The position numbers and the translations under genes were made by a program. A DNA stretch of 64,000 nucleotides from Candidatus Latescibacterota bacterium (GTDB taxonomy: Bacteria > Latescibacterota > UBA2968): positions 2,700 through 66,699 of the forward strand of contig JAJEDY010000095.1 of NCBI GenBank assembly GCA_022821275.1, in the 5' to 3' direction. A model generated the notes under the pieces. That model made no database searches, had not been told where the DNA came from, and was given only the letters and a program-made list of their open reading frames with translations. Each line of letters starts with the position of its first letter. Position 1 is the stretch's first letter. Below are positions 11,150 to 63,152 of this stretch, piece after piece.

Positions 11150-11779
11150 TCATTCTGAATTCGTACCTGAAGCCACGAATATCCCGATGCTGGCAAACTC
11201 GCCGCCACAACTCGACTGCGCTTCGCAACACGTACCGATGCTGTCAATACGTATTTCTCTCAGTCCCGCGCTCTGAAACCACGCCACAATATCTGCTCTT
11301 TTGAAACCCATCCAGCGGTCGTGGTGTTCTTCTCGCAGGAAGTCAAATTCGTGTTCATCAAGATCAGTGATCACCAGTTTACCGGCAGGCTTCAGGATTC
11401 TGACCATTTCTGCGATTGCTTCTGACGGGGATTCGACATGGTGGAGACACATGTTGGCAAAAGCATAGTCAACCGTTGCATCGGAAATGGGTAGATTTTG
11501 GGCTTGTCCAATGCGATAGTCAATTGTCTCAATGCCCGCAAATTTTCTCTTCATTTCTTTCAGGATTGCTTCAGACTGATCAACTGCAATGACCTGAAGC
11601 CCTGCCCGTATAAGACTCTCAGAGATAAAGCCTGTACCTGCGCCAATATCAGCGGCAATTTTGCCTTTTTGTACAGCAGCGGTAGAAAGTGCTGTCACTC
11701 TGACTTCATCGGAGAAGAAATTTTCGCGCATGTCGTCCCAGTCTTGGGCAACGCGATCAAAATAGTCCTTACTGCTCAT
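11150..11779 (-). CDS. Class I SAM-dependent methyltransferase with Cys-rich C-terminal tail
   Basis: Motif I DIGAGTGF, then VDYAFANMCLHHV. The C-terminus is GTCCEAQSSCGGEFASIGIFVASG. Confidence 0.85.
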   Translation of the reverse strand: MSSKDYFDRVAQDWDDMRENFFSDEVRVTALSTAAVQKGKIAADIGAGTGFISESLIRAGLQVIAVDQSEAILKEMKRKFAGIETIDYRIGQAQNLPISDATVDYAFANMCLHHVESPSEAIAEMVRILKPAGKLVITDLDEHEFDFLREEHHDRWMGFKRADIVAWFQSAGLREIRIDSIGTCCEAQSSCGGEFASIGIFVASGTNSE

Positions 11780-18218: not shown

Positions 18219-20177
18219 TTACCATCCGTGTACAAAATGCCGGTTCAATGGAAACCAGATCGCATCTACTACTGTCGAAGCTCCTACCCCCACCAGATAT
18301 CCCACCACAATACCGTACCAAAATGGCAGCGATCGCCGGTAGAGGCTCACCCCGCCAAAGCGCAATGTCAATGACTTGGCCAGCCATACGATGAATATCC
18401 CAAACCCGTAGCGAAATCGGTTGTCTGGAAAAGCCAGGCCGAACGGGTGAATTGGCCAACCCGCGTACCGCATGCCCAAAAGCGTCAATAATCCCGCCTC
18501 GGCAATGCCCAAAAACCACACTATGGTTTTGTCCAGATCGAAATACGCCGGTTGTGTGCCTTCAATCAGCGACACTTGCCTGACCATGTGTCGCCAGTCG
18601 GGCATATAGGCGTAATTCAATCCGCCTTCCATATAACACACGTAGAGTTGTGCGGCACAGGCCACTGCAAATGCGCCCAGAAGGGCAACGGGCAACACGC
18701 CCACGATGGTCCATGAGCGCTGTAGCCCATTGCCCAGGAGCTTAAAAAAATGGGGAATTGCCGGCACAGATAGCATGCGGGCTGGCGCTCCGGCGAGCGC
18801 GTTTCGGCTTACCACTATCAAACCCGTCAAATCCCGGCTCGAAATATTTAATGTCCCGTAGAGTGCCTTCATAATCTGCCACCCCTTTTCTCCCTGGGGT
18901 GCGAGGAACACGTAGCCCGTGGCCGTCGCAAACTTGGTTACGCCGAAGTAGATGATGAACAGAAGCCCCATCTGCACCATTGCCGAAGGTAGGCTGATGC
19001 CCATTGAGAGCAAAAAACCCGTGAAAAAAATTGTGGCACTTAAAAATCCCAGCCAGGCCGTGCGATAGGATACGGGCACCCCGTCGTCTTGTGAGCGCAT
19101 ATCTCCAAAAGCCTTGTGCAGCGTCTCCTTCAAGTGATCTCGGGCCACCCATACCGACCAGATGACCAGAAAAACCAGTGCGCCGTGCGCCTCCAGCATC
19201 AAAATCTCTTCGGGCGCGGCTGTCTGGCCCTGCAACCCGATGGTAAAGCCCGTGCGGTTCATCACTGTCATCTTAAACGCATTGACGAGGAAAAAAAACC
19301 AGAAACTCATCAAAATATTCAGCGGGCACAAATAGGCCAGACCCATCATCAGTGGGTGAATGCGCAAATAGATGGTGGGTATATACTGTCCCGTATCTAC
19401 CGCTGTGGTCAGCCAGTGGTCGTAGATCGTGATGCGGGGCAATGTCAGAACAAAATAGCCGGTGATATTCCAGAAAATCACGCCGGCTGTACACGCAAAT
19501 CCGGCCCAGAAAACCCAGTCTTTGAACACATCGGGAACCCGGCTTCCCTCGGATTCTTCCAGGAGTGCCAGAGGTACGGTAGCGAGGGGAAAGGACAGGC
19601 GCTCGTGCATCAGCCACTGTTTGTAGAATAGTACGCTGGCAAAAAATCCGGCCAGTACCAGAGATAGACTTCCCACAAACCACCAGAACAGCGGAACGAC
19701 CCAGTGCGCCCAGGGAATCTCATCTCTGTGCCCCAATCCCACGTATAGCCGCTCTACCACTTCGCTTCCCCGGTCCATAAATAACCACCGGGGCAGGTAC
19801 TGCCCCGCCACTTCCCAGAATCGGTTTTCGGGTGAAGAAAAGGCCGCGGGTGCCGAAATATCCGTGATTAAATACCCTACCCACCCGATTGCGGGCACCG
19901 TAGAGACCATCCACACGATCCCAAAAATCGTGACCACTTCGCTGCGCGATAGGGCGAATCGGGGTGCTGTCAGTTTTAACGCGGTGTTGATTCCGATCCA
20001 CACCACGAGGGGCAGCAATGCGGTTACGGGCAAAAAACTCTTCATCAAATTTCGTCCGTAATAGGTCGCAAAAATACATACCCCTGCAATTGTGATCATC
20101 GCCAGAATAAAGGCTCTGAGCGTCACGCCCTGGGGTTCTGCAACCGGTGCCTCAATTGTGCGTTCGGAAATCGCCAC
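18219..20177 (-). CDS. Large polytopic membrane protein of unknown function (paralog of 13587-15569)
   Basis: See the paralog entry. GTG start at 20177 with AAAGGA 7-8 nt upstream. Confidence 0.7.
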   Translation of the reverse strand: MAISERTIEAPVAEPQGVTLRAFILAMITIAGVCIFATYYGRNLMKSFLPVTALLPLVVWIGINTALKLTAPRFALSRSEVVTIFGIVWMVSTVPAIGWVGYLITDISAPAAFSSPENRFWEVAGQYLPRWLFMDRGSEVVERLYVGLGHRDEIPWAHWVVPLFWWFVGSLSLVLAGFFASVLFYKQWLMHERLSFPLATVPLALLEESEGSRVPDVFKDWVFWAGFACTAGVIFWNITGYFVLTLPRITIYDHWLTTAVDTGQYIPTIYLRIHPLMMGLAYLCPLNILMSFWFFFLVNAFKMTVMNRTGFTIGLQGQTAAPEEILMLEAHGALVFLVIWSVWVARDHLKETLHKAFGDMRSQDDGVPVSYRTAWLGFLSATIFFTGFLLSMGISLPSAMVQMGLLFIIYFGVTKFATATGYVFLAPQGEKGWQIMKALYGTLNISSRDLTGLIVVSRNALAGAPARMLSVPAIPHFFKLLGNGLQRSWTIVGVLPVALLGAFAVACAAQLYVCYMEGGLNYAYMPDWRHMVRQVSLIEGTQPAYFDLDKTIVWFLGIAEAGLLTLLGMRYAGWPIHPFGLAFPDNRFRYGFGIFIVWLAKSLTLRFGGVSLYRRSLPFWYGIVVGYLVGVGASTVVDAIWFPLNRHFVHGW

Positions 20178-28914: not shown

Positions 28915-29435
28915 ATAAAGAGGTTTTCAGATAAAAAAATCGCGCTTGCATTTTTTGCGTAGCGCGGCTGTTTTATCAAAAAGGCTCTCTCCTTTTTGGG
29001 CGAGCTTTCAAATGGAATTGAGAAATGTATTAACCTTATGGGTCAGTTAATCTTATCGACATAGATGTAATCAATATATTAATCTTTTAAATTAATTAAA
29101 ATTATCAAAAATTTGTTGTTGTAGCATAGTTTTAAGTAGTGATTTGAAAGGTATTGCCGCACGATTTTAGCTGCGATTCAGTAATATTGGAAAGACTTTT
29201 TTGCAAGATATAAATAAGTTTTACTAAGTAACCATTTACTCACTTAGATAATATATTACATCCTGACCCAAAAGCAACCCTAATTTTTAAAAAATTTCAT
29301 CGTTACAGAGTCGCTATCCCATTAACAAAATTGGCGTTGGACATGGCTCAGTACAGGTACACGAAGCGTGGGATCCGAATCGTTGGCGGCAGCGATTTAA
29401 TCCGCCCTGTCAAGCGTTTTTGCAGTACAAACTTA

Positions 29436-30992: not shown

Positions 30993-31012
30993 GGGCGAGG
31001 CATGCCTCGCCC
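30993..31012. repeat. Perfect 20-nt palindrome GGGCGAGGCATGCCTCGCCC (copy 1)
   Basis: Self-complementary. The 25-nt string TGTAGGGGCGAGGCATGCCTCGCCC is identical at 44547-44571. Confidence 0.9.
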
Positions 31013-31158
31013 GTCATAGCGGCTTGGTTTTAGCCGCCTGTCTGCGTGCAATGCACAGACAGGCGATCCAGAAAGGTTTGCCTTTCGCCTTTCATCCGCG
31101 AAAAACGCTCAAATTACTCGCGTTTTTTTCTGCGTCATCTGCGGATACCTTCCCATCG

Positions 31159-41396: not shown

Positions 41397-41518
41397 TGGA
41401 GTTCCTCCGTAAATAATGATTGGTTCGTAACCTTTGGTGCAGGTTATCCATATAGTAAGGGCCTATATAGGGTTATAATCGTCATTGCGGCATGCTTAAA
41501 GCCGCAATCCACACGCCT

Positions 41519-55430: not shown

Positions 55431-56798
55431 TTATGCATCGGGCAATTCTGTCCGCAATGCGAATTTTTCCTCGGGAGTTCCCGCGCCTTTCAATACTTCC
55501 AGATACGCTTTGTGCAGTCGCTGTGCTTCGGCCATGTTTTGCTGGTTATATATGTTGTTCTTTTGCGCGAGGTCTGTTCGCAGGTCGTATAGTTCCGCAG
55601 GCCAGTTGGGGCCGCGATAGTGCAATGTCCAGTTGCCATCTGTGATGCTGGAGCACACGCTGCGGTCTTCGCGCACGGGCAGGGTTGCCGATGTGACGGC
55701 GACTTTCCGTTGTTCTTCTGTTTTTTCGCCTTTCAGGATAGGAGCGACGGATACTCCGTGCAGGCCATCGGGTTTTTTTATGCCTGCCAGGTCGAGAATT
55801 GTGGGCATAAAATCGACGGGTTGTGTCAAGAATTTTGTGCGTTTTCCCGCTGCGTTGCTGCCGGGTACATATCCCATGAAGGCTGTGTGGGATACTTCTT
55901 CGTAATAGGGCCAGTCGCCGTCTGGTCCCTGCCCGCTTTTGCCAATGCGTCCGTGGTCTCCGATATAATGTCCGTGGTCGGACATAAAAATTACTGCTGT
56001 ATCTTCCCAGAGGCCCAGATTTTCTACTTTTTCTAACAAATGGCCGACCCAGGTGTCCATGAGCGTGACTTCACCTGCGTATAGCGCTTGTGTGTGTTTG
56101 ATTTCTTCTGCGCTCAGGTAATCGCAGTAGTCGTAAATGGGATGGTCAATGACTTCACCTGTGTATCCGGGGTTGTACATATTGACGTAGTGCGCGGGTG
56201 GATCCCACGGTTCGTGGGGGTCAAAGGTGTCGATGTAGAGGAAGAATTTTTCGTGGGTGTGGTTTGCTTCCAGCCAGTCTGCGGCGCGTTGCATGGTGCG
56301 TGCGACAAAGGTGTCGCGTTCTGTTTCCCAGTGTGCTGCACGCCAGCGATAGTGATATTGTTGCATGCGCTCAGGCGTGCGAATTTTTTCGGGGACTGAT
56401 TCAAGGGGGACGGGTACGTCGTCTGTGATAGCGCGGTCGCCTTCTTGCCCGCGAATCCACTCCCAGCCCAAAAATCCGCGGTCAAACTGATGTCCGTCTC
56501 TTACCAGGTGCGGTGTATCGCACAAGAGCATGGTGACATACCCCGCGTCTGTGAGGAGTTCGGCCAAGATGACTTCATCTTCTGGGAGTGGCGTCCAGCC
56601 GCGAAAGGGAAAGGTGAGTCTGCCGGTCATCATGTCTGTGCGCGTGGGTATTGTTGGGAATGATGCCTGATACGCGCGGTCAAATAACATGCACCGTTTG
56701 GAAAATGCGTCTATATGTGGCGTGCGGATCCAGGAATTTCCATGACAGCCCAGGTGGTCGTAGCGCAAGGTGTCGGACATTACGACGATGATGTTCAT
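55431..56798 (-). CDS. Sulfatase-fold (alkaline-phosphatase superfamily) hydrolase with Thr at the nucleophile position
   Basis: MNIIVVMSDTLRYDHLGCHGN...TPHIDAF...SFPTIPTRTDMMTGR aligns to the sulfatase C-x-P-S-R-x-x-x-x-TG motif as T-I-P-T-R-T-D-M-M-TG. No signal peptide. Confidence 0.8.
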   Translation of the reverse strand: MNIIVVMSDTLRYDHLGCHGNSWIRTPHIDAFSKRCMLFDRAYQASFPTIPTRTDMMTGRLTFPFRGWTPLPEDEVILAELLTDAGYVTMLLCDTPHLVRDGHQFDRGFLGWEWIRGQEGDRAITDDVPVPLESVPEKIRTPERMQQYHYRWRAAHWETERDTFVARTMQRAADWLEANHTHEKFFLYIDTFDPHEPWDPPAHYVNMYNPGYTGEVIDHPIYDYCDYLSAEEIKHTQALYAGEVTLMDTWVGHLLEKVENLGLWEDTAVIFMSDHGHYIGDHGRIGKSGQGPDGDWPYYEEVSHTAFMGYVPGSNAAGKRTKFLTQPVDFMPTILDLAGIKKPDGLHGVSVAPILKGEKTEEQRKVAVTSATLPVREDRSVCSSITDGNWTLHYRGPNWPAELYDLRTDLAQKNNIYNQQNMAEAQRLHKAYLEVLKGAGTPEEKFALRTELPDA

Positions 56799-56939
56799 GT
56801 GTGACCCTCCAAAAAAGGTTTCTGAGTGCTGAGAATTGAGCCTGTGTAAAATAATTCCTTTTTTAAAATCCGCAATACGAACGCCAGACGGTTCAAAATG
56901 GGGTTGTGGTTTGCAGCAGGATATAACGCCTGTGGATGG

Positions 56940-56968
56940 TTGACAGCATATAAATTTCTGTCTATGTT
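56940..56968 (+). promoter_or_regulatory. Sigma70-like promoter (TTGACA-17 nt-TATGTT) upstream of the R-M genes
   Basis: Read directly, about 50 nt upstream of the ATG at 57017. Whether this lineage uses sigma70 consensus promoters is unknown. Confidence 0.35.
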
Positions 56969-57016
56969 TGTAGCAAAATCAAATACCCATTTTGAAGTTA
57001 CATATCACGTAAATAC

Positions 57017-57736
57017 ATGACGGAAAAAGACCCCAAAATCTTATCCCTGGATGAAATAGAGGAAATTGAAAAGCTCACATTGCGTTGGATATTCCAAGCG
57101 GTTTATGATTTCGGAATGGAAGCACATGAAATATTCCTTAGATCGCCTGATAGCGTTAAAGATATTGCTGAAGATATAACGCGAGAATTGCTTGATCGGC
57201 TTTCCGGTTTTAATGTGCAACAGAGAGTGTATGGAACAGTTGATTACAAAAAAGCAAGATATGTGATTCTTCCTGATCAAACCGTCAGACAGGCATTGTT
57301 TATTGACTCAAAAGCAGAGAAGGAAAATCGTTCTGCAACGATTCAGATGTCACAAACTTCCATGTGGGTGAAACAACGGCGATCCGGTGCCCAGGTTAAT
57401 GAAAAAGGATTTTTGCCAGAAATATCCAGATATGGAGATAAAAATTATCTCACGACGACATGCCTTATTCATTTCAGCTACGATGATGATCTTTTAGGTC
57501 ATCACCGTTTGCATGAAGTGACTATGGTAGCAATTCCAAATGGAAAATTGCAAGAAAAGTATAACCCAACAGTTGATGATGGCATCTGGCTGGCTGGTAG
57601 AAATGCACCGACATTAGGTGAAGATTTCAGGGTAAGAGTAGGCTTTAACAGATTAAGGGCCAAGGCTTCGTGGCGAATACAAAGGCTTACCTATAATGAA
57701 AAAAGACAGGAGTGTATTGGGTCATGGCAATCGTAA
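57017..57736 (+). CDS. Putative type II restriction endonuclease (PD-(D/E)XK-like)
   Basis: Possible catalytic motif ...GTVD(76)YKK...ALFID(97)SK(99)AEK. It overlaps the downstream DNA methyltransferase gene by 13 nt. No family recognised by eye. Confidence 0.5.
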   Translation: MTEKDPKILSLDEIEEIEKLTLRWIFQAVYDFGMEAHEIFLRSPDSVKDIAEDITRELLDRLSGFNVQQRVYGTVDYKKARYVILPDQTVRQALFIDSKAEKENRSATIQMSQTSMWVKQRRSGAQVNEKGFLPEISRYGDKNYLTTTCLIHFSYDDDLLGHHRLHEVTMVAIPNGKLQEKYNPTVDDGIWLAGRNAPTLGEDFRVRVGFNRLRAKASWRIQRLTYNEKRQECIGSWQS

Positions 57737-58749
57737 ACTTGTTTAAATCACTTGCTCCGAACGCGATATATCACGGCGATTCGCAGGAGCTTTTGGAGAG
57801 AATTGAGCGGGAATCTATTGCGCTCAGTATCTGGTCGCCTCCGTATTACGTCGGGAAAGATTACGAGAAGGATTTATCATTTGAAGATTGGAAAAATCTT
57901 CTGCAAAAGGTGATCAAACTTCATTTTCCCATTGTGAAACCCGGCGGATTTTTGGTGATTAATATTGCCGATATATTGTGTTTTAAGGATGAGACGATGC
58001 CCAAAATTATGGCGGAAAACATTTCTCGTCGGAAAATTAATCTTACAAAAGAAGACATACTTAAGGTTGTACAACAGCATCCTGATTGGAATAGGTACAA
58101 ACTTGCAGAACACTTTGGGTGCAGTGAGCAAACAATAGATCGACGGCTTAATGGTAACAATATTAGAGGTGGGAAATATCAATCCCAAACAAGGGTCTAT
58201 CTCGTTGGGAATTTGATAGAAAAAGCTGCTACAGATGCAGGTTTTTATTTGTATGACCGGCGTATATGGGTAAAAGACGCCGCCTGGGAGAATTCGAGAT
58301 GGCATACCATATCATACCGTTCTGTAGATGAGTCAGAATATATTTATATTTTTTGGAAGCCGGGTATAACGAAGATTGATCGATCAAGGCTTACAAAACA
58401 AGAATGGGTAAATTGGGGTTCCAGAGGCGTATGGGAAATTCCCTCTGTACGCAGCAATTCAGATCATGATTCTAAGTTTCCAGTTGAATTGCCGCGCAGA
58501 GCTATTAAGCTATTTACTGAGCCTGATGAAATAGTGCTCGATTGTTTTATAGGAAGCGGCACGACTGCTTTGGCAGCATTAAGTGAGGGAAGGAGATATA
58601 TCGGTATTGACAAGGAAAAGAGGTCAGTGGAGATTGCAACAGAGGCTGTAAAATCATTCAATACGTACGAAAAAGAGCCTGAGCAGATGGATCTGCTGAT
58701 ACGGGAATTGGAAGCAGGGTATGAGATAAATGAAGGACGTCAGATGTGA
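57724..58749 (+). CDS. Beta-class N4/N6 DNA methyltransferase (motif IV before motif I)
   Basis: SIWSPPYYVG (motif IV, SPPY) near the N-terminus and LDCFIGSGTTALAA (motif I) near the C-terminus. The region between them contains the HTH-like segment RYKLAEHFGCSEQTIDRRLNG. An alternative GTG start is at 57712. Confidence 0.85.
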   Translation: MAIVNLFKSLAPNAIYHGDSQELLERIERESIALSIWSPPYYVGKDYEKDLSFEDWKNLLQKVIKLHFPIVKPGGFLVINIADILCFKDETMPKIMAENISRRKINLTKEDILKVVQQHPDWNRYKLAEHFGCSEQTIDRRLNGNNIRGGKYQSQTRVYLVGNLIEKAATDAGFYLYDRRIWVKDAAWENSRWHTISYRSVDESEYIYIFWKPGITKIDRSRLTKQEWVNWGSRGVWEIPSVRSNSDHDSKFPVELPRRAIKLFTEPDEIVLDCFIGSGTTALAALSEGRRYIGIDKEKRSVEIATEAVKSFNTYEKEPEQMDLLIRELEAGYEINEGRQM

Positions 58750-58809
58750 CGTCAAAAGTGGGCGAACTCAAGGGTGTAATCTACAACTGACTATTGACCA
58801 CGAAGTGAT

Positions 58810-59031
58810 ATGAATAAAGACATCAAACTTTTAGATGTGATTGCATTGACCGAAGATATTGCTGAGTATGATCTTTGTCAGGGTCAGGTTGGCACAATTG
58901 TTGAGGTACTTTCGGACGGTCAAGCGTTTGAAGTTGAATTTTGTGATCGCGAAGGTCGCATCTATGAATCAGTTGGTTTACGTCCCAACCAGTTTATCGT
59001 ATTACACTATGCGCCGATCACAAATGTTTGA
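58810..59031 (+). CDS. DUF4926-like small protein
   Basis: 73 aa: LLDVIALTEDIAEYDLCQGQVGTIVEVLSDGQAFEVEFCDREGRIYESVGLRPNQFIVL, the SH3-like small-protein pattern of DUF4926 (recalled from memory). Confidence 0.6.
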   Translation: MNKDIKLLDVIALTEDIAEYDLCQGQVGTIVEVLSDGQAFEVEFCDREGRIYESVGLRPNQFIVLHYAPITNV

Positions 59032-59056
59032 GATATTGTATATAAAAAGTTACTTG

Positions 59057-59111
59057 CAAAGCCCCGGATTTCTCCAGGGCTTTTTTTATAGCGCAATAAT
59101 CAATTTGACCT
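59057..59111 (+). repeat. Direct repeat copy 1 (contains a terminator hairpin + T7)
   Basis: CAAAGCCCCGGATTTCTCCAGGGCTTTTTTTATAGCGCAATAATCAATTTGACCT. About 93% identical to 63038-63094. Confidence 0.9.
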
Positions 59112-59127
59112 GTTCCAGATAAGGCAG

Positions 59128-59312
59128 AACGTGATGTGTGACTTTAAATAGTGCAAAAGAGGTTTCTCGGCTATCTTGAATTGTTCACTAAACAAGAAGC
59201 CATCCAACCAAAATCTTAACCCATACCATGTGTGTCTTTCTCAATATCATCAATTACAGAGACCCGCTGGATTTTGACGGACTCGTTCAATTTTGAAGTC
59301 ACATATCGCGTT
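59128..59312 (-). other. Stem-closed ~185-nt element 1 (20-nt inverted-repeat arms, ~140-nt interior), 3' of the 417-aa nuclease gene
   Basis: Arm AACGTGATGTGTGACTTTAAAT (59128-59149, +) pairs with the arm whose reverse complement is AACGCGATATGTGACTTCAAAA (59291-59312). The two mismatches would be G-U pairs in RNA. Confidence 0.6.
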
Positions 59313-59341
59313 TGTCAGGGGTTATTTTTTACCGGCAGTTT

Positions 59342-60595
59342 TTAATCCCAAGTCTCCAGTAGTCTTGTTATTTTTTGTCGAACTTCATCTATAAATGTGT
59401 CCTCTGAATCATCTAATCTAAGAGCTTCTTCTCGATTCCATCGGTAGATGCAACTTAAACCTGGGCAAGTTCTCAGGTAGCTTCTTCCGGTTTCAGTAAA
59501 GTTCTCTTCAAGTCCGGAGACATCCTCACAGCTAATCAGTTCGAGCTGTAAAAGCTGTCGAAAAAAATCGCGAAAATCTGAAGAATCGCGGTTTACTTGG
59601 CTAATCATTTGAGGATTTTGTTCCCAAAAATTGATATAGGCTTCAAGATCCAATGGTGTGTTTGCCCAACATAAATGTTTCTGTATATGCGAAAAATGCA
59701 GATTGGGATCAATATTCCATCCTCTATTGGTAAGATCCTGTAAGGCATCTGTATTGAGACTCTCATATAAGGCGCGTGCCTGTGCCATTGTGTCCCCAGG
59801 GTGAATTTTTAGTTCTATACACCAATTGTTATCCTGTTCTCGTTTTATGCCCAAATAAATTCGACGAGCAGGTAAATCATTAGAACCAAGTTCGATATGT
59901 TGACCTTGAACCTCTCCAATGGAAATGGATTCCAAAATTCTGACACATCTTCTGTTGATCAAATACGGGTCGTCTTTACAGATGCTGAACTTTGAAAATG
60001 GATTCAGAGACCCAAAATGCGTATCTACAAAAGTCAGAAAATCTTCAATCAGTAACGCTTCAGCGCCATGCACAAGCTGTTTTTGTAGTAAGGCACTCAG
60101 GCACTCAATAACCTCCTTCCAATCAATGCCAACCGGATCTTCTACAATTTCAATTTCTGAGTCTTCTGCGATACTAGGGTTTAATTGCTCTTCCCAGACA
60201 TTTTCAGACCAGGGTTTGTTTTCTATCACGAGAATCCATTTTGGATCAGAATCAAAATATATAACTCCATCATAGCGGGCACTTCGATCCACATTTTCAA
60301 TTTTGTTCTCGGGTGTCCAATTCTTATTGGTCATCAATAAGGAAACCAAATATCCCTGAGAATCGGTTATGTTTTTCACTTGAGTCTGAATATTGTCAAG
60401 TTTCATTTGTAGCTCTGTTAAAGTCGGAAGAACTCGGTCATGCTCATTTAAAATTTGATAAGACCTGACTAAATCAATAAAGGTAGTCTGCACCAAGGGT
60501 ACCATCCTCAATACAACAAGGAACGCACGGGTTAATTGATCTTCATGGTGAGGTCCTTTGCTCTTGTACGGTTCGAAGTAGTTCAGGTGATTCAT
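59342..60595 (-). CDS. PD-(D/E)XK nuclease-family protein (417 aa)
   Basis: Preferred start MNHLNYFEPY at 60595, with AAAGGAGG 7 nt upstream. Motifs are HHEDQLTRAFLVVL ... RYDGVIYFDSDPKWILVIENKPW...EEQL (E...D...ExK...QL, as in the PDDEXK_4-type family). The 77-aa track extension crosses a palindromic intergenic element. Confidence 0.6.
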   Translation of the reverse strand: MNHLNYFEPYKSKGPHHEDQLTRAFLVVLRMVPLVQTTFIDLVRSYQILNEHDRVLPTLTELQMKLDNIQTQVKNITDSQGYLVSLLMTNKNWTPENKIENVDRSARYDGVIYFDSDPKWILVIENKPWSENVWEEQLNPSIAEDSEIEIVEDPVGIDWKEVIECLSALLQKQLVHGAEALLIEDFLTFVDTHFGSLNPFSKFSICKDDPYLINRRCVRILESISIGEVQGQHIELGSNDLPARRIYLGIKREQDNNWCIELKIHPGDTMAQARALYESLNTDALQDLTNRGWNIDPNLHFSHIQKHLCWANTPLDLEAYINFWEQNPQMISQVNRDSSDFRDFFRQLLQLELISCEDVSGLEENFTETGRSYLRTCPGLSCIYRWNREEALRLDDSEDTFIDEVRQKITRLLETWD

Positions 60596-60651
60596 TACAA
60601 ATCCTCCTTTTTGAGAAGTGGTAACAAACGGTTTTCTATACAATATAACTT

Positions 60652-60831
60652 CATGTGTGACTTCAAGATCAGTGGTCATGAGAGCACTGTCATTCTGAGC
60701 GGAGCGCAGCGGAGTCGAAGAATCTGCTGCCTCAACGATGTGCATGGGTAACAGATTCTTCGTCAGCCTATCGGCTTTCTCAGCAGGACAGGGTATAGTA
60801 GCCCATTTACTTTTAAAGTCACACATCGCGT
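60652..60831 (-). other. Stem-closed ~180-nt element 2 (same arm core, unrelated palindromic interior), between the two nuclease genes
   Basis: Arm CATGTGTGACTTCAAG (60652-60667, +) pairs with the arm whose reverse complement is ACGCGATGTGTGACTTTAAAA (60811-60831), with 11 perfect bp (ATGTGTGACTT). The interior holds the 11-bp hairpin CGAAGAATCTG...CAGATTCTTCG and GTCATTCTGAGCGGAGCGCAGCGGAG. Confidence 0.6.
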
Positions 60832-60866
60832 AAGGCAGAGTAATTCCCTATTCGCAAAGCTTCGAT

Positions 60867-62459
60867 TTACTCTGGTGGTATAAGCAATGCAATCAATTCG
60901 TGTAATTTTGAGAAACGAAAATCTTCTAATTTCAAAGGGCGCCAAAGAGCATACCAAGAACCGTATCTTGGACTAGGACAATTTTGACGTGGTTGAAAAT
61001 CGTAACCCAGATCTGTACCTTTAATCTTCTGAAAAAGATCATTTCGACACTCGTTATCATCTTTCTCAATTCTCATTTGAATAGACCCGACATCTTCATC
61101 TTTTTTTGCTAATATTCCCGTTTTGTTATCAAACTCAATATGAATCCAGTACGAAAATGAGCCTGACAATATCAAATTTAATTCGGATAGCAATAGAGAT
61201 CCTGCTATTCTTATTTCTTCAGATGCAAACCATACTCCCGACGGTTCAGAATTGGTCGTCGGTTCAGTTCTTAACAGGTTGTGTTGGCGACTATGTTCTT
61301 TGAACCAATGCCAGAACAGTTGATTGCAAAATCGATCAGAGAAACGATGAATGGTTGGAAGTGTGGGGGGCTCTGCTTCTGTCTCTTCTATAAAAAATCC
61401 TCGTAGTTTTTGAAAGAACTCAGCCTCTTTCCGAAGATGAGTTGCGAATGAGGAGACAAAAGAATTCTTCTGTGCAGATGTCTGTCTTAAAATTTCGTCG
61501 GCCAAATGTGCAAACGTTATAAGGGGATAATTTGTGCGTTCATCTTCACTAAGGTCGGGAAAATTCCACTCGTCAAATGCAATTCTTCCAAGTTTTGTCT
61601 GTGTTTGTGCATAGTTTTTAATTTGGTCTCGACTTCCGTACGTTTTGCATTTGACCTCAAAAACCGCAATTAGATTGTCATTTTCATATACACAAATATC
61701 GAATCGTTTATCTCTACTCTCGGTTACTTCGGGGCTTATTGTCAATTCTGAATTTGTGTTAGCTGATAATTCCAATTTTTCGAGTAACACAGATAATAAT
61801 TGATTACCTAAACCATGGTCTCCTTTTGGATCCATAAGCCAACAAATTGTACCAGAGACAAAAGTTTCGCGATCTGCAGGTGCTAAATATTGCCAAACTG
61901 AATGAGGTTCCCTGTTTTCCTTCTTAACTATGACAGAAGAGTTGTCAGGTTGTTTAGACCCCAGAGGCGATGTTGTGACTTTCTGGGACTGTTGAATGCC
62001 TGAGCGTTCTGTGTAAATGGACGCCAATTTAGGCCTGCCTCTTGGCTGTTTATTGCGCCATTGCACAATTTTTTGCGCGTCAGGTTCAGATAGGATAATA
62101 GGATATGTGGGGCCATATTGTTTGCCGATGTCTATTCCCGAAGCTCGCATTGAATGGATGGTATTGCGCAATGTGCGTGGTGTAATGTCCAATTTTTCTG
62201 CTAATTCTGAAATTGAATAAATGGTCTCTATTTTTCCATGTAAAATTTTTGCGTGTTCCGAAAGAATATCGTTCAGATCCACGCCCTTACTGGCATTTTC
62301 AATTGTAATAGATACCAATTTATCTTTATCATTATAGGACAGAATAATGTCCTGATGTTCGCCATCTGTTCCGGCATTTTCCGCGCCTCCAGATGCAGGT
62401 GTCGAACTCAGTGTAATATGAAGCGTATCCGTTTCGGAAAAATACTCCAGAGATTTCAT
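60867..62459 (-). CDS. DUF2283-like / HTH / PD-(D/E)XK nuclease fusion protein (530 aa)
   Basis: aa 1-67: YFSETDTLHITL...ILSYNDKDKLVSITIENASKG (DUF2283-like). HTH: ISELAEKLDITPRTLRNTIHSM. Nuclease core: ETFVSGTICWLMDPKGDHGLGNQLL...RFDICVYENDNLIAVFEVKCK...DQIKNY. Confidence 0.6.
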   Translation of the reverse strand: MKSLEYFSETDTLHITLSSTPASGGAENAGTDGEHQDIILSYNDKDKLVSITIENASKGVDLNDILSEHAKILHGKIETIYSISELAEKLDITPRTLRNTIHSMRASGIDIGKQYGPTYPIILSEPDAQKIVQWRNKQPRGRPKLASIYTERSGIQQSQKVTTSPLGSKQPDNSSVIVKKENREPHSVWQYLAPADRETFVSGTICWLMDPKGDHGLGNQLLSVLLEKLELSANTNSELTISPEVTESRDKRFDICVYENDNLIAVFEVKCKTYGSRDQIKNYAQTQTKLGRIAFDEWNFPDLSEDERTNYPLITFAHLADEILRQTSAQKNSFVSSFATHLRKEAEFFQKLRGFFIEETEAEPPTLPTIHRFSDRFCNQLFWHWFKEHSRQHNLLRTEPTTNSEPSGVWFASEEIRIAGSLLLSELNLILSGSFSYWIHIEFDNKTGILAKKDEDVGSIQMRIEKDDNECRNDLFQKIKGTDLGYDFQPRQNCPSPRYGSWYALWRPLKLEDFRFSKLHELIALLIPPE

Positions 62460-62485
62460 ATCAGAGGTCCTTTCGTTTTTCTTTT

Positions 62486-62875
62486 TTAGTGTACAGGCGA
62501 TTGCAAAATTGATGCGTTATTGTTAATATAACTTGGTGTGAATACGGTGCTTCTCTTATTGTCTCCCTCAAATTCGAGTATCAAACTGTGTATTTCAACT
62601 CGATGCTCAACAGGGCTTACTTGATAGGTCTCGCCATCTCTGCTCACAATCTCAAAAATTCCTCCGTAAAGGTATCTGTCTCCGTCAATCTGTGCGAAGG
62701 TGACTATGAAATCTGTAACAAATCGCTCTTTGGCTATTCCTCTATATGTTTGCCAACTTGCCCATTCTTCAGGATTCCAAATTGAGTCAATCGGGTATTC
62801 CCCTGTCTCATTTCGCTTGGCAAGGTGAACTCGAGCATTGGAATCGTCATATTCTGGGAAAATCTCTTGAATCAT
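62486..62875 (-). CDS. Small hypothetical protein (129 aa), first gene of the nuclease operon
   Basis: AAGGAG 7 nt upstream of the ATG and a 26-nt gap to the next gene. WASWQTYRGIAKERFVTDFIVTFAQIDGDRYLYGGIFEIV loosely recalls a non-catalytic N-terminal module seen fused to some GIY-YIG nucleases (from memory, unverified). Confidence 0.45.
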   Translation of the reverse strand: MIQEIFPEYDDSNARVHLAKRNETGEYPIDSIWNPEEWASWQTYRGIAKERFVTDFIVTFAQIDGDRYLYGGIFEIVSRDGETYQVSPVEHRVEIHSLILEFEGDNKRSTVFTPSYINNNASILQSPVH

Positions 62876-63037
62876 GTTAATTCTCCTTTTGTAATTCAGG
62901 TTGATCTCTGAGTGTTCGGTTGCGAAAATATGGCGTCTTCTTCATCGATAATATCCTTCTCATATAAGGCGACCTATATGGGAATATTGGTCAACCGGTC
63001 AACATAGAATATAACCATATAGAACTATCTGTCAATA

Positions 63038-63094
63038 CAAAAAGCCCCGGATTTCTCCAAGGCTTTTTTCATAGCGCAGTAATCAATTTGACCT
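63038..63094 (+). repeat. Direct repeat copy 2
   Basis: CAAAAAGCCCCGGATTTCTCCAAGGCTTTTTTCATAGCGCAGTAATCAATTTGACCT. Confidence 0.9.
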
Positions 63095-63152
63095 CTGTAG
63101 GAGTGATGTTTTTTCAGAGTGAATATTTATAGTCACATGTATTTGGGAGGAG

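Follow-up and report, generated by a model that had tools for sequence, protein, structure and literature searches.

Among the closest known counterparts of the locus analyzed here are two kinds of mobile unit. Cardinium cOegib carries transposase-less miniature elements (MITEs) of ~240 bp whose inverted repeats are those of a parental element of the IS982 family; they have been amplified in a single lineage and are presumably maintained by intact parental copies (PMC9769881). In TIME-COMPs, a passenger lies between two non-autonomous elements with inverted repeats, and the resulting target-duplicated unit is mobilized in trans (PMC4133298, PMC13367494); MITE-bounded composites are likewise known from Acinetobacter, where they carry integrons or blaPER-1 (PMC3934969).

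The unit described below lies in a 64-kb stretch of Candidatus Latescibacterota DNA (hereafter the window, meaning the whole stretch that was analyzed), and resembles TIME-COMPs and the Acinetobacter units in having a bracketed passenger and a target duplication around the whole unit. Those units, however, are of Tn3-family or other origin and carry antibiotic-resistance genes, mostly on plasmids of clinical bacteria, whereas the unit in the window has IS982-family ends, is bracketed by two elements of different types and carries a putative nuclease or defence gene from a two-gene operon, on the chromosome of an uncultured symbiont. It also departs from the Cardinium cOegib system in three respects: in the Latescibacterota a single set of ends is common to two or more MITE families whose interiors are unrelated, the first of the two elements in the window is a one-off deletion derivative and not an amplified family, and the Latescibacterota elements build gene-carrying composites.

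Repeat copies in the window

The initial annotation had listed six copies of an inverted-repeat motif in a gene island of the window. A scan with the 14-nt core of this motif, allowing up to two mismatches, returned six matches where 0.72 were expected for the 64-kb window; none of 100 shuffles gave as many as six. Five of these matches fall within the island (56992-57005, 59293-59306 and 60813-60826 on the minus strand; 59134-59147 and 60653-60666 on the plus strand), and the sixth, at 18552, has two mismatches and is chance-like. The motif is written here as the 20-mer ACGYGATRTGTGACTTYAAA, against which copies A to E and G were scored:

56991-57010, minus strand: copy A, solo terminal inverted repeat, 1 mismatch to the 20-mer
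58737-58756, plus strand: copy G, solo terminal inverted repeat, 3 mismatches
59129-59148, plus strand: copy B, left repeat of element 1
59292-59311, minus strand: copy C, right repeat of element 1
60648-60667, plus strand: copy D, repeat of element 2, 3 mismatches
60812-60831, minus strand: copy E, repeat of element 2

Five of the six copies listed at the outset are significant; the remaining one, at 63126-63142, is at chance level, and copy G had been overlooked. The sequence at 63126-63142 matches the 20-mer at 13 of 20 positions, a grade at which about 20 matches are expected per window by calculation, and its similarity to copy A is no greater than that of shuffled sequence. It also lies outside the island, being still present in genomes with an empty site. 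For matches of the grade of copy G the calculated chance expectation is ~0.02 per window, and this copy recurs at the equivalent place in relatives, with two mismatches in locus L117 and three in L116 and L123; the stop codon of the methyltransferase gene (TGA, 58747-58749) falls within it. The outer terminus of copy A, at 57010, stands 6 nt ahead of the ATG of the restriction endonuclease gene. Leftward of this terminus, a weak nhmmer match between positions 1-94 of MITE family A and 57010-56913 (E = 0.11) suggests that a degenerate MITE remnant may extend to about 56913. The paired stems noticed at the start are borne out, B and C pairing over 21 nt at 86% and D and E over 14 nt at 93%, and the interiors that they enclose are indeed nearly equal in length (143 and 146 nt) and have no mutual relation.

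The parent insertion sequence and its miniature derivatives

The description of the motif as island-specific holds within the 64-kb window, but in the lineage at large its copies are scattered throughout the genomes. When one genome per species was scanned for exact matches, with counts that are lower bounds, the 20-mer was found at >113 loci, at least 111 of them in 15 Candidatus Latescibacterota assemblies and spread along the chromosomes; such genome-wide frequency is the outcome that the initial annotation had named as speaking against its own reading. The motif looks island-specific in the window because the family targets AT-rich non-coding DNA, which is mostly found within the island there.

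Among the loci so identified, recurrent motif-bounded elements of 1048 bp encode, in a single open reading frame, a 326-aa DDE transposase that matches NCBIfam NF033520 (IS982 family transposase) with 165.1 bits against a cut-off of 130 (E = 2e-48), as well as Pfam DDE_Tnp_1_3 (E = 7e-9). Nine copies, in several genomes, are exactly 1048 bp long, with repeats of 20-22 nt, and the reading frame is intact in nine of the ten full-length copies. The element has in common with IS982 of Lactococcus, ISAba825 and ISAba9 of Acinetobacter and ISCca4 of Cardinium a length of ~1 kb and a single DDE transposase reading frame. Its repeats of ~20 nt start with AC and its target duplications are short and variable (7-9 bp), which places it within the ranges of length, duplication size and "AC" ends given for the family in ISfinder. 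The motif ACGYGATRTGTGACTTYAAA forms the terminal inverted repeats of this 1048-bp insertion sequence (IS) of the IS982 family and of its miniature derivatives. Within the motif, TGTGAC is a conserved core.

Sixty-nine paired elements were examined. MITE family A accounts for 29 of them, with a modal length of 182 bp, and MITE family B for 21, with a modal length of 183-184 bp and 88-96% identity over the full length; the IS group comprises 11, namely the ten full-length copies together with a 459-bp deletion derivative. Exact target-site duplications of 7-11 bp flank 50 of the 69 paired elements, compared with 0 of 69 control flanks, and seven of the ten full-length IS copies show exact duplications of 7-9 bp. 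Insertion-site flanks are poorer in GC than the rest of the locus (0.427 vs. 0.505, p = 4e-12), and insertions lie in a coding-like frame in 4 of 66 cases, against 362 of 545 random positions. The IS982-family member had not been described previously and, in the sampling available, occurs only in Candidatus Latescibacterota, in MAGs from sponges, corals and other marine sources; it has at least two MITE families. A full-length IS was found at about genome depth in a sister sponge metagenome, and also in a coral metagenome and metatranscriptome. No intact transposase gene was found in the window or among the assembled contigs of the source sample, and present-day mobility in the source genome is therefore hypothetical, intact IS copies being known from related genomes and from the sister metagenome.

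Both paired elements of the window can be placed within this family:

59129-59311, plus strand: element 1, 183 bp, internally deleted IS982-family copy with repeats B and C
60648-60831, minus strand: element 2, 184-bp member of MITE family B with repeats D and E

Nucleotides 1-84 of element 1 correspond to IS positions 1-84 at 87-94% identity and nucleotides 79-183 to IS positions 944-1048 at 90-95% (nhmmer E = 4e-23 and 2e-32). The last 29 transposase codons are retained, tblastn of the transposase C-terminus giving 96.6% over 29 aa. Since no other copy in the sample shares this particular deletion, we read element 1 as a defective IS whose two ends were brought together by loss of the interior, rather than as an amplified MITE. 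Element 2 matches the MITE family B profile (nhmmer E = 8e-63); compared over the full length, at least 14 copies from other genomes share 88-96% identity with it, including 96% for the copy at L075 and 88-92% for 12 others. It contains a palindromic core of 39 nt (60687-60725), and the initial annotation was right in likening its inner palindrome to a widespread environmental repeat. Elements 1 and 2 are both shorter than 500 bp, lack a transposase gene and have ends identical to those of the IS, as MITEs do; the multiple dispersed copies with a conserved interior that also mark MITEs are found for element 2 and not for element 1. The initial annotation had set a MITE family aside on the ground of conserved ends and variable interiors, but each interior is conserved inside its own family, and element 2 is a family member.

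The same two elements had been proposed to be structured RNA modules belonging with the nuclease genes and serving in RNA processing or stability, as terminators, or as small-RNA partners. Their placement would suit such a role: both follow a stop codon by 30-35 nt on the coding strand, as originally noted, element 2 standing 35 nt after the stop of the gene for a 530-aa protein and element 1 30 nt past the stop of the next gene, both on the minus strand. Element 2, moreover, folds far better than its shuffles (z = -3.85), and metatranscriptome contigs cover parts of the region, such as 59215-59601, as far as assembled contigs go. Element 1, however, folds like shuffled sequence (z = -0.47), and there is no match to an Rfam family at E <= 1. 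Across 16 copies of MITE family B, none of the 45 predicted pairs shows compensatory changes and the substitutions seen break pairs; the covariation term for these copies is +0.95, at the low power that such closely related sequences afford. The two outer stem positions are mismatched in nearly all copies, the elements also adjoin unrelated genes, such as those for a tRNA synthetase and an ABC transporter, and the target duplications are proof that the elements inserted as DNA. The structured-RNA and small-RNA-partner ideas are hence very improbable, although the hairpins of the elements may have incidental terminator or stabilizer effects.

The composite unit and its cargo

Elements 1 and 2 enclose a single gene, and the whole is bracketed by a direct duplication:

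59121-59128, no strand: left target-site duplication AAGGCAGA, 8 bp, directly abutting the outer terminus
59129-60831, no strand: very probable composite transposon, 1703 bp, consisting of element 1, the cargo gene and element 2
59312-60647, minus strand: cargo 2, 1336 bp, with one gene (59342-60595, 417 aa) preceded by a GGAGG ribosome-binding site
60832-60839, no strand: right target-site duplication AAGGCAGA, 8 bp, an exact 8/8 match to the left copy

At the outside stand repeats B and E, each 20 nt long, in inverted orientation and 95% complementary, and the AAGGCAGA duplication brackets only the composite as a whole. Element 1 (flanks AAGGCAGA/TTGTCAGG) and element 2 (flanks ACAATATA/AAGGCAGA) have no duplication of their own, as expected if they had moved together. 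The best explanation, in which we place high confidence, is that the motif represents IS982 transposon ends and that elements 1 and 2 moved the cargo gene as a composite transposon.

The origin of the cargo can be followed to native loci in related genomes. Positions 1-1336 of cargo 2 align end to end, at 87-89% nucleotide identity, with three loci that lack the repeats (L118, L119 and L122), where the cargo gene is followed by a DUF2779 gene in a two-gene operon. The breakpoints between cargo and native operon are TATATTGT and ATGACAA; by alignment, the cargo is a precise fragment of the native operon, and a donor locus without elements is thereby identified. Element 2 is inserted directly upstream of a native -10-like TATATT. 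In the encoded protein, which is uncharacterized, there is a D...ExK motif of the kind typical of PD-(D/E)XK nucleases, with invariant residues D110, E126 and K128 (numbering of the 418-residue query; D109, E125 and K127 in native numbering). The protein has no match in Pfam, NCBIfam or PADLOC and no PDB sequence match by family profile, and its AlphaFold model (pLDDT 91) yielded no significant Foldseek match and no PDB fold match. Comparison by hhalign of its D...ExK region with the PDDEXK_4 region of the 530-aa protein gave a weak alignment (E = 0.005, probability 7%).

Loci L116 and L117 carry the composite at the same site as the window, with 91-97% nucleotide identity, like the flanking genes, and with target duplications matching at 8/8 positions in L116 and 7/8 in L117. 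From this shared site and identity the insertion is judged to be old, and it may now be a fossil. A related composite occupies a different locus, L121, where it adjoins an EcoRV restriction-modification (R-M) system. Its upstream MITE-cargo junction is identical to that of the window, its downstream MITE differs and is inserted 4 nt away, and its outer duplication, TCATATAT/TCATACAT, matches at 7/8 positions; with only the upstream junction in common, the two composites are related but are not the same unit. Among the 113 fetched loci there are no other composites, neighboring MITEs having their own separate duplications and the intervening genes being ordinary. The empty-site allele (joint 59128->60840) was not found in the reads of four runs, and the reconstructed empty site (...CCAGAT-AAGGCAGA-GTAATTCC...) has no exact match in JGI metagenomes. 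A larger element reaching from copy G, on the plus strand, to copy C or E was also considered and was rejected, as its flanks give no target duplication.

Transposon ends could also have come to bracket the gene through independent insertions and later rearrangements, the unit never having transposed as a composite. The family clusters in AT-rich DNA, where two elements can land nearby by chance, locus L005 has two MITEs 1.7 kb apart that each have their own duplication, and the region has a history of duplication and deletion. We nevertheless consider this account unlikely. The elements of the window lack duplications of their own, and yet the 8 bp abutting the outer termini are identical, for which the chance is roughly 1.5e-5. 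Furthermore, the cargo is an exact excerpt of an operon located elsewhere in related genomes, and at a third locus, in L121, another composite stands with a duplication of its own.

The restriction-modification pair and the borders of mobilized segments

A second segment of the island is delimited by the solo repeats:

57011-58736, plus strand: cargo 1, SfiI-like restriction endonuclease and DNA methyltransferase genes, between copies A and G
57017-57736, plus strand: SfiI-like restriction endonuclease (Pfam RestrictionSfiI, E = 6e-93; PADLOC REase_II)
57712-58749, plus strand: N6/N4 DNA methyltransferase with an HTH insert (Pfam N6_N4_Mtase, E = 1.5e-41; PADLOC MTase_II)

Cargo 1 is exactly bounded by the outward-facing termini of copies A and G. 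Homology to an R-M locus without repeats, L124, begins exactly at 57011, and at both ends the breakpoints of this homology coincide with the termini of the two copies. The R-M pair was probably captured in the same way as cargo 2. It is flanked by solo repeats only, with no duplication scorable there, and the distal parts of the flanking elements would since have decayed.

The proposal that the motif marks recombination sites or cassette junctions stands in a loose sense, since ends acted on by a transposase mark the borders of two mobilized segments, but features of an integron are lacking. On the stricter reading, the repeats would be sites of a site-specific recombinase, attC-like as in integrons or shufflon-like, joining gene cassettes. 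The likeness to integron cassettes lies in imperfect inverted repeats of ~60-140 nt after single genes, exactly at the borders of exchangeable segments in an array-like island, and this island is polymorphic in natural populations. The core sites of attC, R''/R', have the form RYYYAAC ... GTTRRRY; they are absent here, the ends reading ACGYGATRTG..., no integrase or recombinase is encoded among the island proteins, and membership among integron attC sites was rejected on these grounds. The target duplications of 7-11 bp are not a product of site-specific recombination, identical ends bound the gene of the parent DDE transposase, and the breakpoints seen in populations (56913/63110, 56965/57701 and 58858/63143) match no repeat terminus. 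Taken as the work of a site-specific recombinase, the repeats would be explained in a way that we find extremely improbable.

Copy A lies between a promoter-like arrangement (TTGACA, a 17-nt spacer and TATGTT; 56940-56968) and the endonuclease ATG, and HTH domains are present in two island proteins. Both observations accord with the suggestion that the motif is an operator through which the 530-aa protein or the HTH-bearing methyltransferase regulates the nuclease genes. This suggestion is otherwise unsupported, and we rate it as highly unlikely: genes for these HTH proteins are absent from >113 loci that have the motif, neither L124 nor the operon to which the cargo gene is native has the motif, and copy A is missing entirely from an orphan-methyltransferase variant of the island. 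Secondary co-option may nonetheless have taken place at copy A.

Assembly of the island by paired IS982-type elements

In the model that we propose for the composite transposon, the terminal inverted repeat is the DNA site that is bound and cut by the DDE transposase of the IS982-family element. The window holds only non-autonomous relatives of that element, in the form of a deleted IS copy, a 184-bp MITE and the solo repeats A and G, and a transposase encoded by a full-length copy at another genomic position would recognize any inverted pair of termini. In an ancestor, the operon formed by the uncharacterized putative nuclease and DUF2779 would have received a MITE 52 nt upstream of its first gene, and a second element would next have landed 7 nt inside the DUF2779 reading frame. 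Joint use of the two outermost termini would then have allowed the 1.7-kb unit to transpose as a composite into the AT-rich DNA that separates the DUF4926 gene from the gene for the 530-aa protein, creating the 8-bp duplication AAGGCAGA upon insertion. The MITE ends may, in addition, rewire the promoters of captured genes. It is conceivable, and we advance it only tentatively, that paired non-autonomous IS982-type elements recurrently excise single defence genes or gene pairs from the operons to which they are native and assemble AT-rich defence islands in Latescibacterota symbionts, and that both the R-M system and the orphaned first gene of the uncharacterized PD-(D/E)XK-like and DUF2779 system arrived in this way.

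The mechanism is an ordinary one, unusually cleanly documented, and nothing in it is new. Its recognition accounts for a puzzling repeat, corrects an over-extended call of a 494-aa reading frame that reads through the MITE, and gives a candidate phylum that has been little studied a previously undescribed IS982-family element along with two MITE families. On the composite reading, the locus offers a clean natural case of MITE-bounded composite transposition outside the clinical context of antibiotic resistance, in which one can see the donor operon, the precise points at which the gene was captured, and two target sites along with the target duplications, and in which a single gene has been cut from a two-gene candidate defence system and placed beside other nucleases.

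The repeat and its transposon family

The low-GC island at about 56.8-63.1 kb (GC about 0.40, versus 0.55 in the flanks) carries most copies of the motif: its 14-nt core occurs six times in the window with up to two mismatches, against 0.72 expected, and five of the six lie inside the island. The full repeat is the 20-mer ACGYGATRTGTGACTTYAAA.

Genes, repeat copies and elements of the island and its borders
55431-56798, minus, sulfatase gene, left neighbour of the island
56991-57010, minus, repeat copy A
57017-57736, SfiI-like restriction endonuclease
57712-58749, N6/N4 methyltransferase with HTH insert
58737-58756, plus, repeat copy G, overlapping the methyltransferase stop codon and kept at that position in three related genomes
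58810-59031, DUF4926 protein
59129-59148, plus, repeat copy B, left end of element 1 (59129-59311)
59292-59311, minus, repeat copy C, right end of element 1
59342-60595, minus, uncharacterised protein (cargo gene)
60648-60667, plus, repeat copy D, left end of element 2 (60648-60831)
60812-60831, minus, repeat copy E, right end of element 2
60867-62459, minus, 530-aa DUF2283-HTH-PDDEXK_4 protein
62486-62875, minus, 129-aa protein
63156 onwards, plus, DHDPS-family gene, right neighbour of the island

Five island copies reported in the initial annotation stand, as do the B/C and D/E stems with their loops of about 145 nt and mutually unrelated interiors; copy G had been overlooked, and a further copy proposed at 63126 matches 13 of 20 positions, which is not significant. 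The sequence at 63126 is assigned to the host backbone because it is retained in genomes where the island is absent.

The motif had been thought confined to the island. When one genome per species was scanned for the 20-mer, it turned up at more than 113 dispersed loci; of the matches listed, 111 lie in 15 Candidatus Latescibacterota assemblies, scattered along the chromosomes. The listed loci form 69 plus/minus repeat pairs, ten of which delimit elements 1048 bp long (1069 bp in one case) coding for a 326-aa protein that scores 165 bits against the NCBIfam equivalog cut-off of 130 for IS982-family transposases and also matches Pfam DDE_Tnp_1_3; the frame is intact in nine of these ten. The remaining pairs belong mostly to two small families, A (29 copies, modal length 182 bp) and B (21 copies, modal length 183-184 bp). 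Exact direct repeats of 7-11 bp flank 50 of the 69 elements and none of 69 control flanks, and the insertion sites are AT-rich (p = 4e-12) and non-coding (4 of 66 in a coding-like frame, versus 362 of 545 random positions). The motif is thus a terminal inverted repeat, shared by an insertion sequence and its MITEs, and because the family favours AT-rich, non-coding targets, the motif shows up in this window only within the AT-rich island. The window itself holds no transposase gene. A full-length copy of the insertion sequence has been assembled from a sister sponge metagenome, with coverage close to that of the genome, and from both a metagenome and a metatranscriptome of coral, so that supply of transposase in trans is plausible for this genome.

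These results bear on three other readings of the repeats. As an operator for the HTH proteins of the island, the motif would not be expected at over a hundred loci without these proteins, nor to be absent, as it is, from homologous repeat-less loci. Integron-like sites are disfavoured by the lack of core sites and of an integrase, and the target duplications argue against site-specific recombination. Against structured RNAs, the elements have no Rfam match, element 1 shows no excess stability, that of element 2 is due solely to its inner palindrome, and none of 45 pairs shows compensatory changes among 16 family B copies, although these are close to one another in sequence. The unlike interiors had also been held against MITEs, an argument that fails because members of the same family share a conserved interior. 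The initial observations mostly hold, and transposon ends largely replace their interpretation.

A composite transposon around a captured gene

Element 1 is a defective insertion sequence, in which the first 84 and last 105 bp are fused and the coding sequence for the last 29 transposase residues is retained, and element 2 belongs, over its full length, to MITE family B (nhmmer E = 8e-63), with 96% identity to a copy in another species-level genome. Neither element has a target duplication of its own; the 8 bp abutting the outer termini of B (59121-59128) and E (60832-60839) both read AAGGCAGA, and over 20 nt the outer repeats show 95% complementarity. Between the two elements lie 1336 bp that can be aligned along their whole length, with 87-89% nucleotide identity, to repeat-less loci in other genomes; there the cargo gene opens a two-gene operon whose second member is a DUF2779 gene. 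Base-level comparison places the upstream breakpoint 52 nt ahead of the ATG, where the MITE directly precedes TATATTGT, and the downstream one 7 nt inside the DUF2779 frame, where element 1 follows ATGACAA.

The identical upstream junction between MITE and cargo occurs in another genome (locus L121) at a quite different location, adjoining an EcoRV-type restriction-modification system, with a different copy of family B as the downstream element, its insertion point lying 4 nt earlier. Because this unit is flanked by a repeat of its own (TCATATAT/TCATACAT) at a different locus, composites built on the cargo gene appear to have inserted at two or more sites. At two further loci, L116 and L117, the unit occupies the same site as in the window and island identity resembles that of the flanking genes (91-97%), so that the insertion at this site is old.

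Element 2 sits directly upstream of TATATT, a -10-like hexamer of the native locus, having replaced the native upstream sequence (60596-60667, minus strand). Its repeat offers TTGAAG as a possible -35, at a spacing of only 13-15 nt, which the promoter scan did not list; the captured gene may owe its expression to this hybrid or to read-through from the 530-aa gene. Public gene calls in the window and L116 give a 494-aa product (59342-60826, minus strand), whose extra 77 N-terminal residues are a read-through of element 2; the true start codon, at 60595, is an ATG that follows GGAGG.

Restriction-modification genes, island polymorphism and nested palindromes

Copies A and G point outward from the restriction-modification genes, as C and D do from the cargo gene. 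Another genome has an SfiI-like restriction-modification locus without repeats (L124), with 81% nucleotide identity to the window; the homology spans 57011 to about 58736, exactly from the A terminus to the G terminus, with unrelated sequence beyond. We infer from this comparison that the pair was formerly bracketed by elements of the IS982-type family, the inner repeats alone surviving. The methyltransferase frame extends about 27 codons (58668-58749) beyond the stop of its L124 homologue (314 aa) and ends within solo repeat G at a TGA, a stop codon thus supplied by the element end.

Part of a 119-kb sponge-metagenome scaffold is near-identical to the window (99.98% over the 8.6 kb compared). 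The island varies among related populations. Metagenome contigs reveal three population breakpoints, lacking the whole island (56913 to 63110), the endonuclease and copy A, with an orphan methyltransferase left (56965 to 57701), or the right half (58858 to 63143); none of the three uses a repeat terminus. At L123 the sulfatase/DHDPS site is empty and the module of restriction-modification and DUF4926 genes (window 56818-59090) lies on the other side of the sulfatase gene, adjoining cas3. A 54-nt direct repeat containing a terminator hairpin (59058-59111 and 63041-63094, 94% identical) corresponds to the 3' flank of the DUF4926 gene. The DHDPS side retains different remnants of a second copy, this 3' flank only in the window and the first 51 nt only in L117 (reverse complement, about 11700-11760), which implies an ancestral DUF4926 duplication that bracketed 59112-63040.

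Within element 2, the 39-nt palindromic core CTGTCATTCTGAGCGGAGCGCAGCGGAGTCGAAGAATCT (60687-60725; see also loci L125-L204) is a very widespread REP-like palindrome with no matching Rfam family. Its resemblance to an environmental repeat, proposed in the initial annotation, is borne out by an exact 34-mer in at least 120 contigs from many unrelated metagenomes; among the matches listed, a degenerate inverted copy often follows 30-45 nt later. In four runs from sponges and corals its coverage is 10-40 times that of the flanks, which are of many different sequences, and Latescibacterota loci also contain the core outside family B. The core is interrupted by a 35-36-nt hairpin, TGAACTGGCCTGAGAAGCGGCCAGTTGTACCCCGC, in the L117 copy of element 2 (L117:7831-7865) and in metatranscriptome contig X17 (at window 60720/60722), with a similar sequence in L068; this hairpin appears to be a second, very small mobile palindrome inside the MITE. 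Furthermore, an intergenic hairpin, CGTCATTGCGGC...GCCGCAATCC (41473-41511), is similar to the hairpin at the centre of family A (nhmmer E = 3e-5), with weaker likenesses at 29153-29200 and 31011-31037, which suggests that MITE interiors in this lineage are built around short palindromes also found alone.

The cargo protein and its setting

The cargo protein has 82 homologues, none of them annotated, and fold and family searches with it gave no match. D110, E126 and K128 (numbered on a 418-residue query with one extra N-terminal codon) are invariant and lie on adjacent predicted strands in a PD-(D/E)XK pattern, and a weak alignment links them to the PDDEXK_4 region of the neighbouring 530-aa protein; on this pattern, the protein can reasonably be regarded as a putative nuclease. 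At native loci (L118:8001-10720, L119:6001-8741, L122:5180-6522), overlapping stop and start codons join genes for a 422-424-aa PD-(D/E)XK-like protein and a 484-489-aa DUF2779 protein, in the neighbourhood of WYL, AAA/STAND-like and Gp49/HTH_3 genes; the operon is a candidate uncharacterised defence pair.

IS982-derived MITEs have been described in Cardinium (PMC9769881), and MITE-bounded composite transposons for Tn3-derived elements and in Acinetobacter (PMC4133298, PMC13367494, PMC3934969). The biology found here is ordinary and the case well resolved: the same kinds of element occur in a candidate phylum, with cargo of a defence type.
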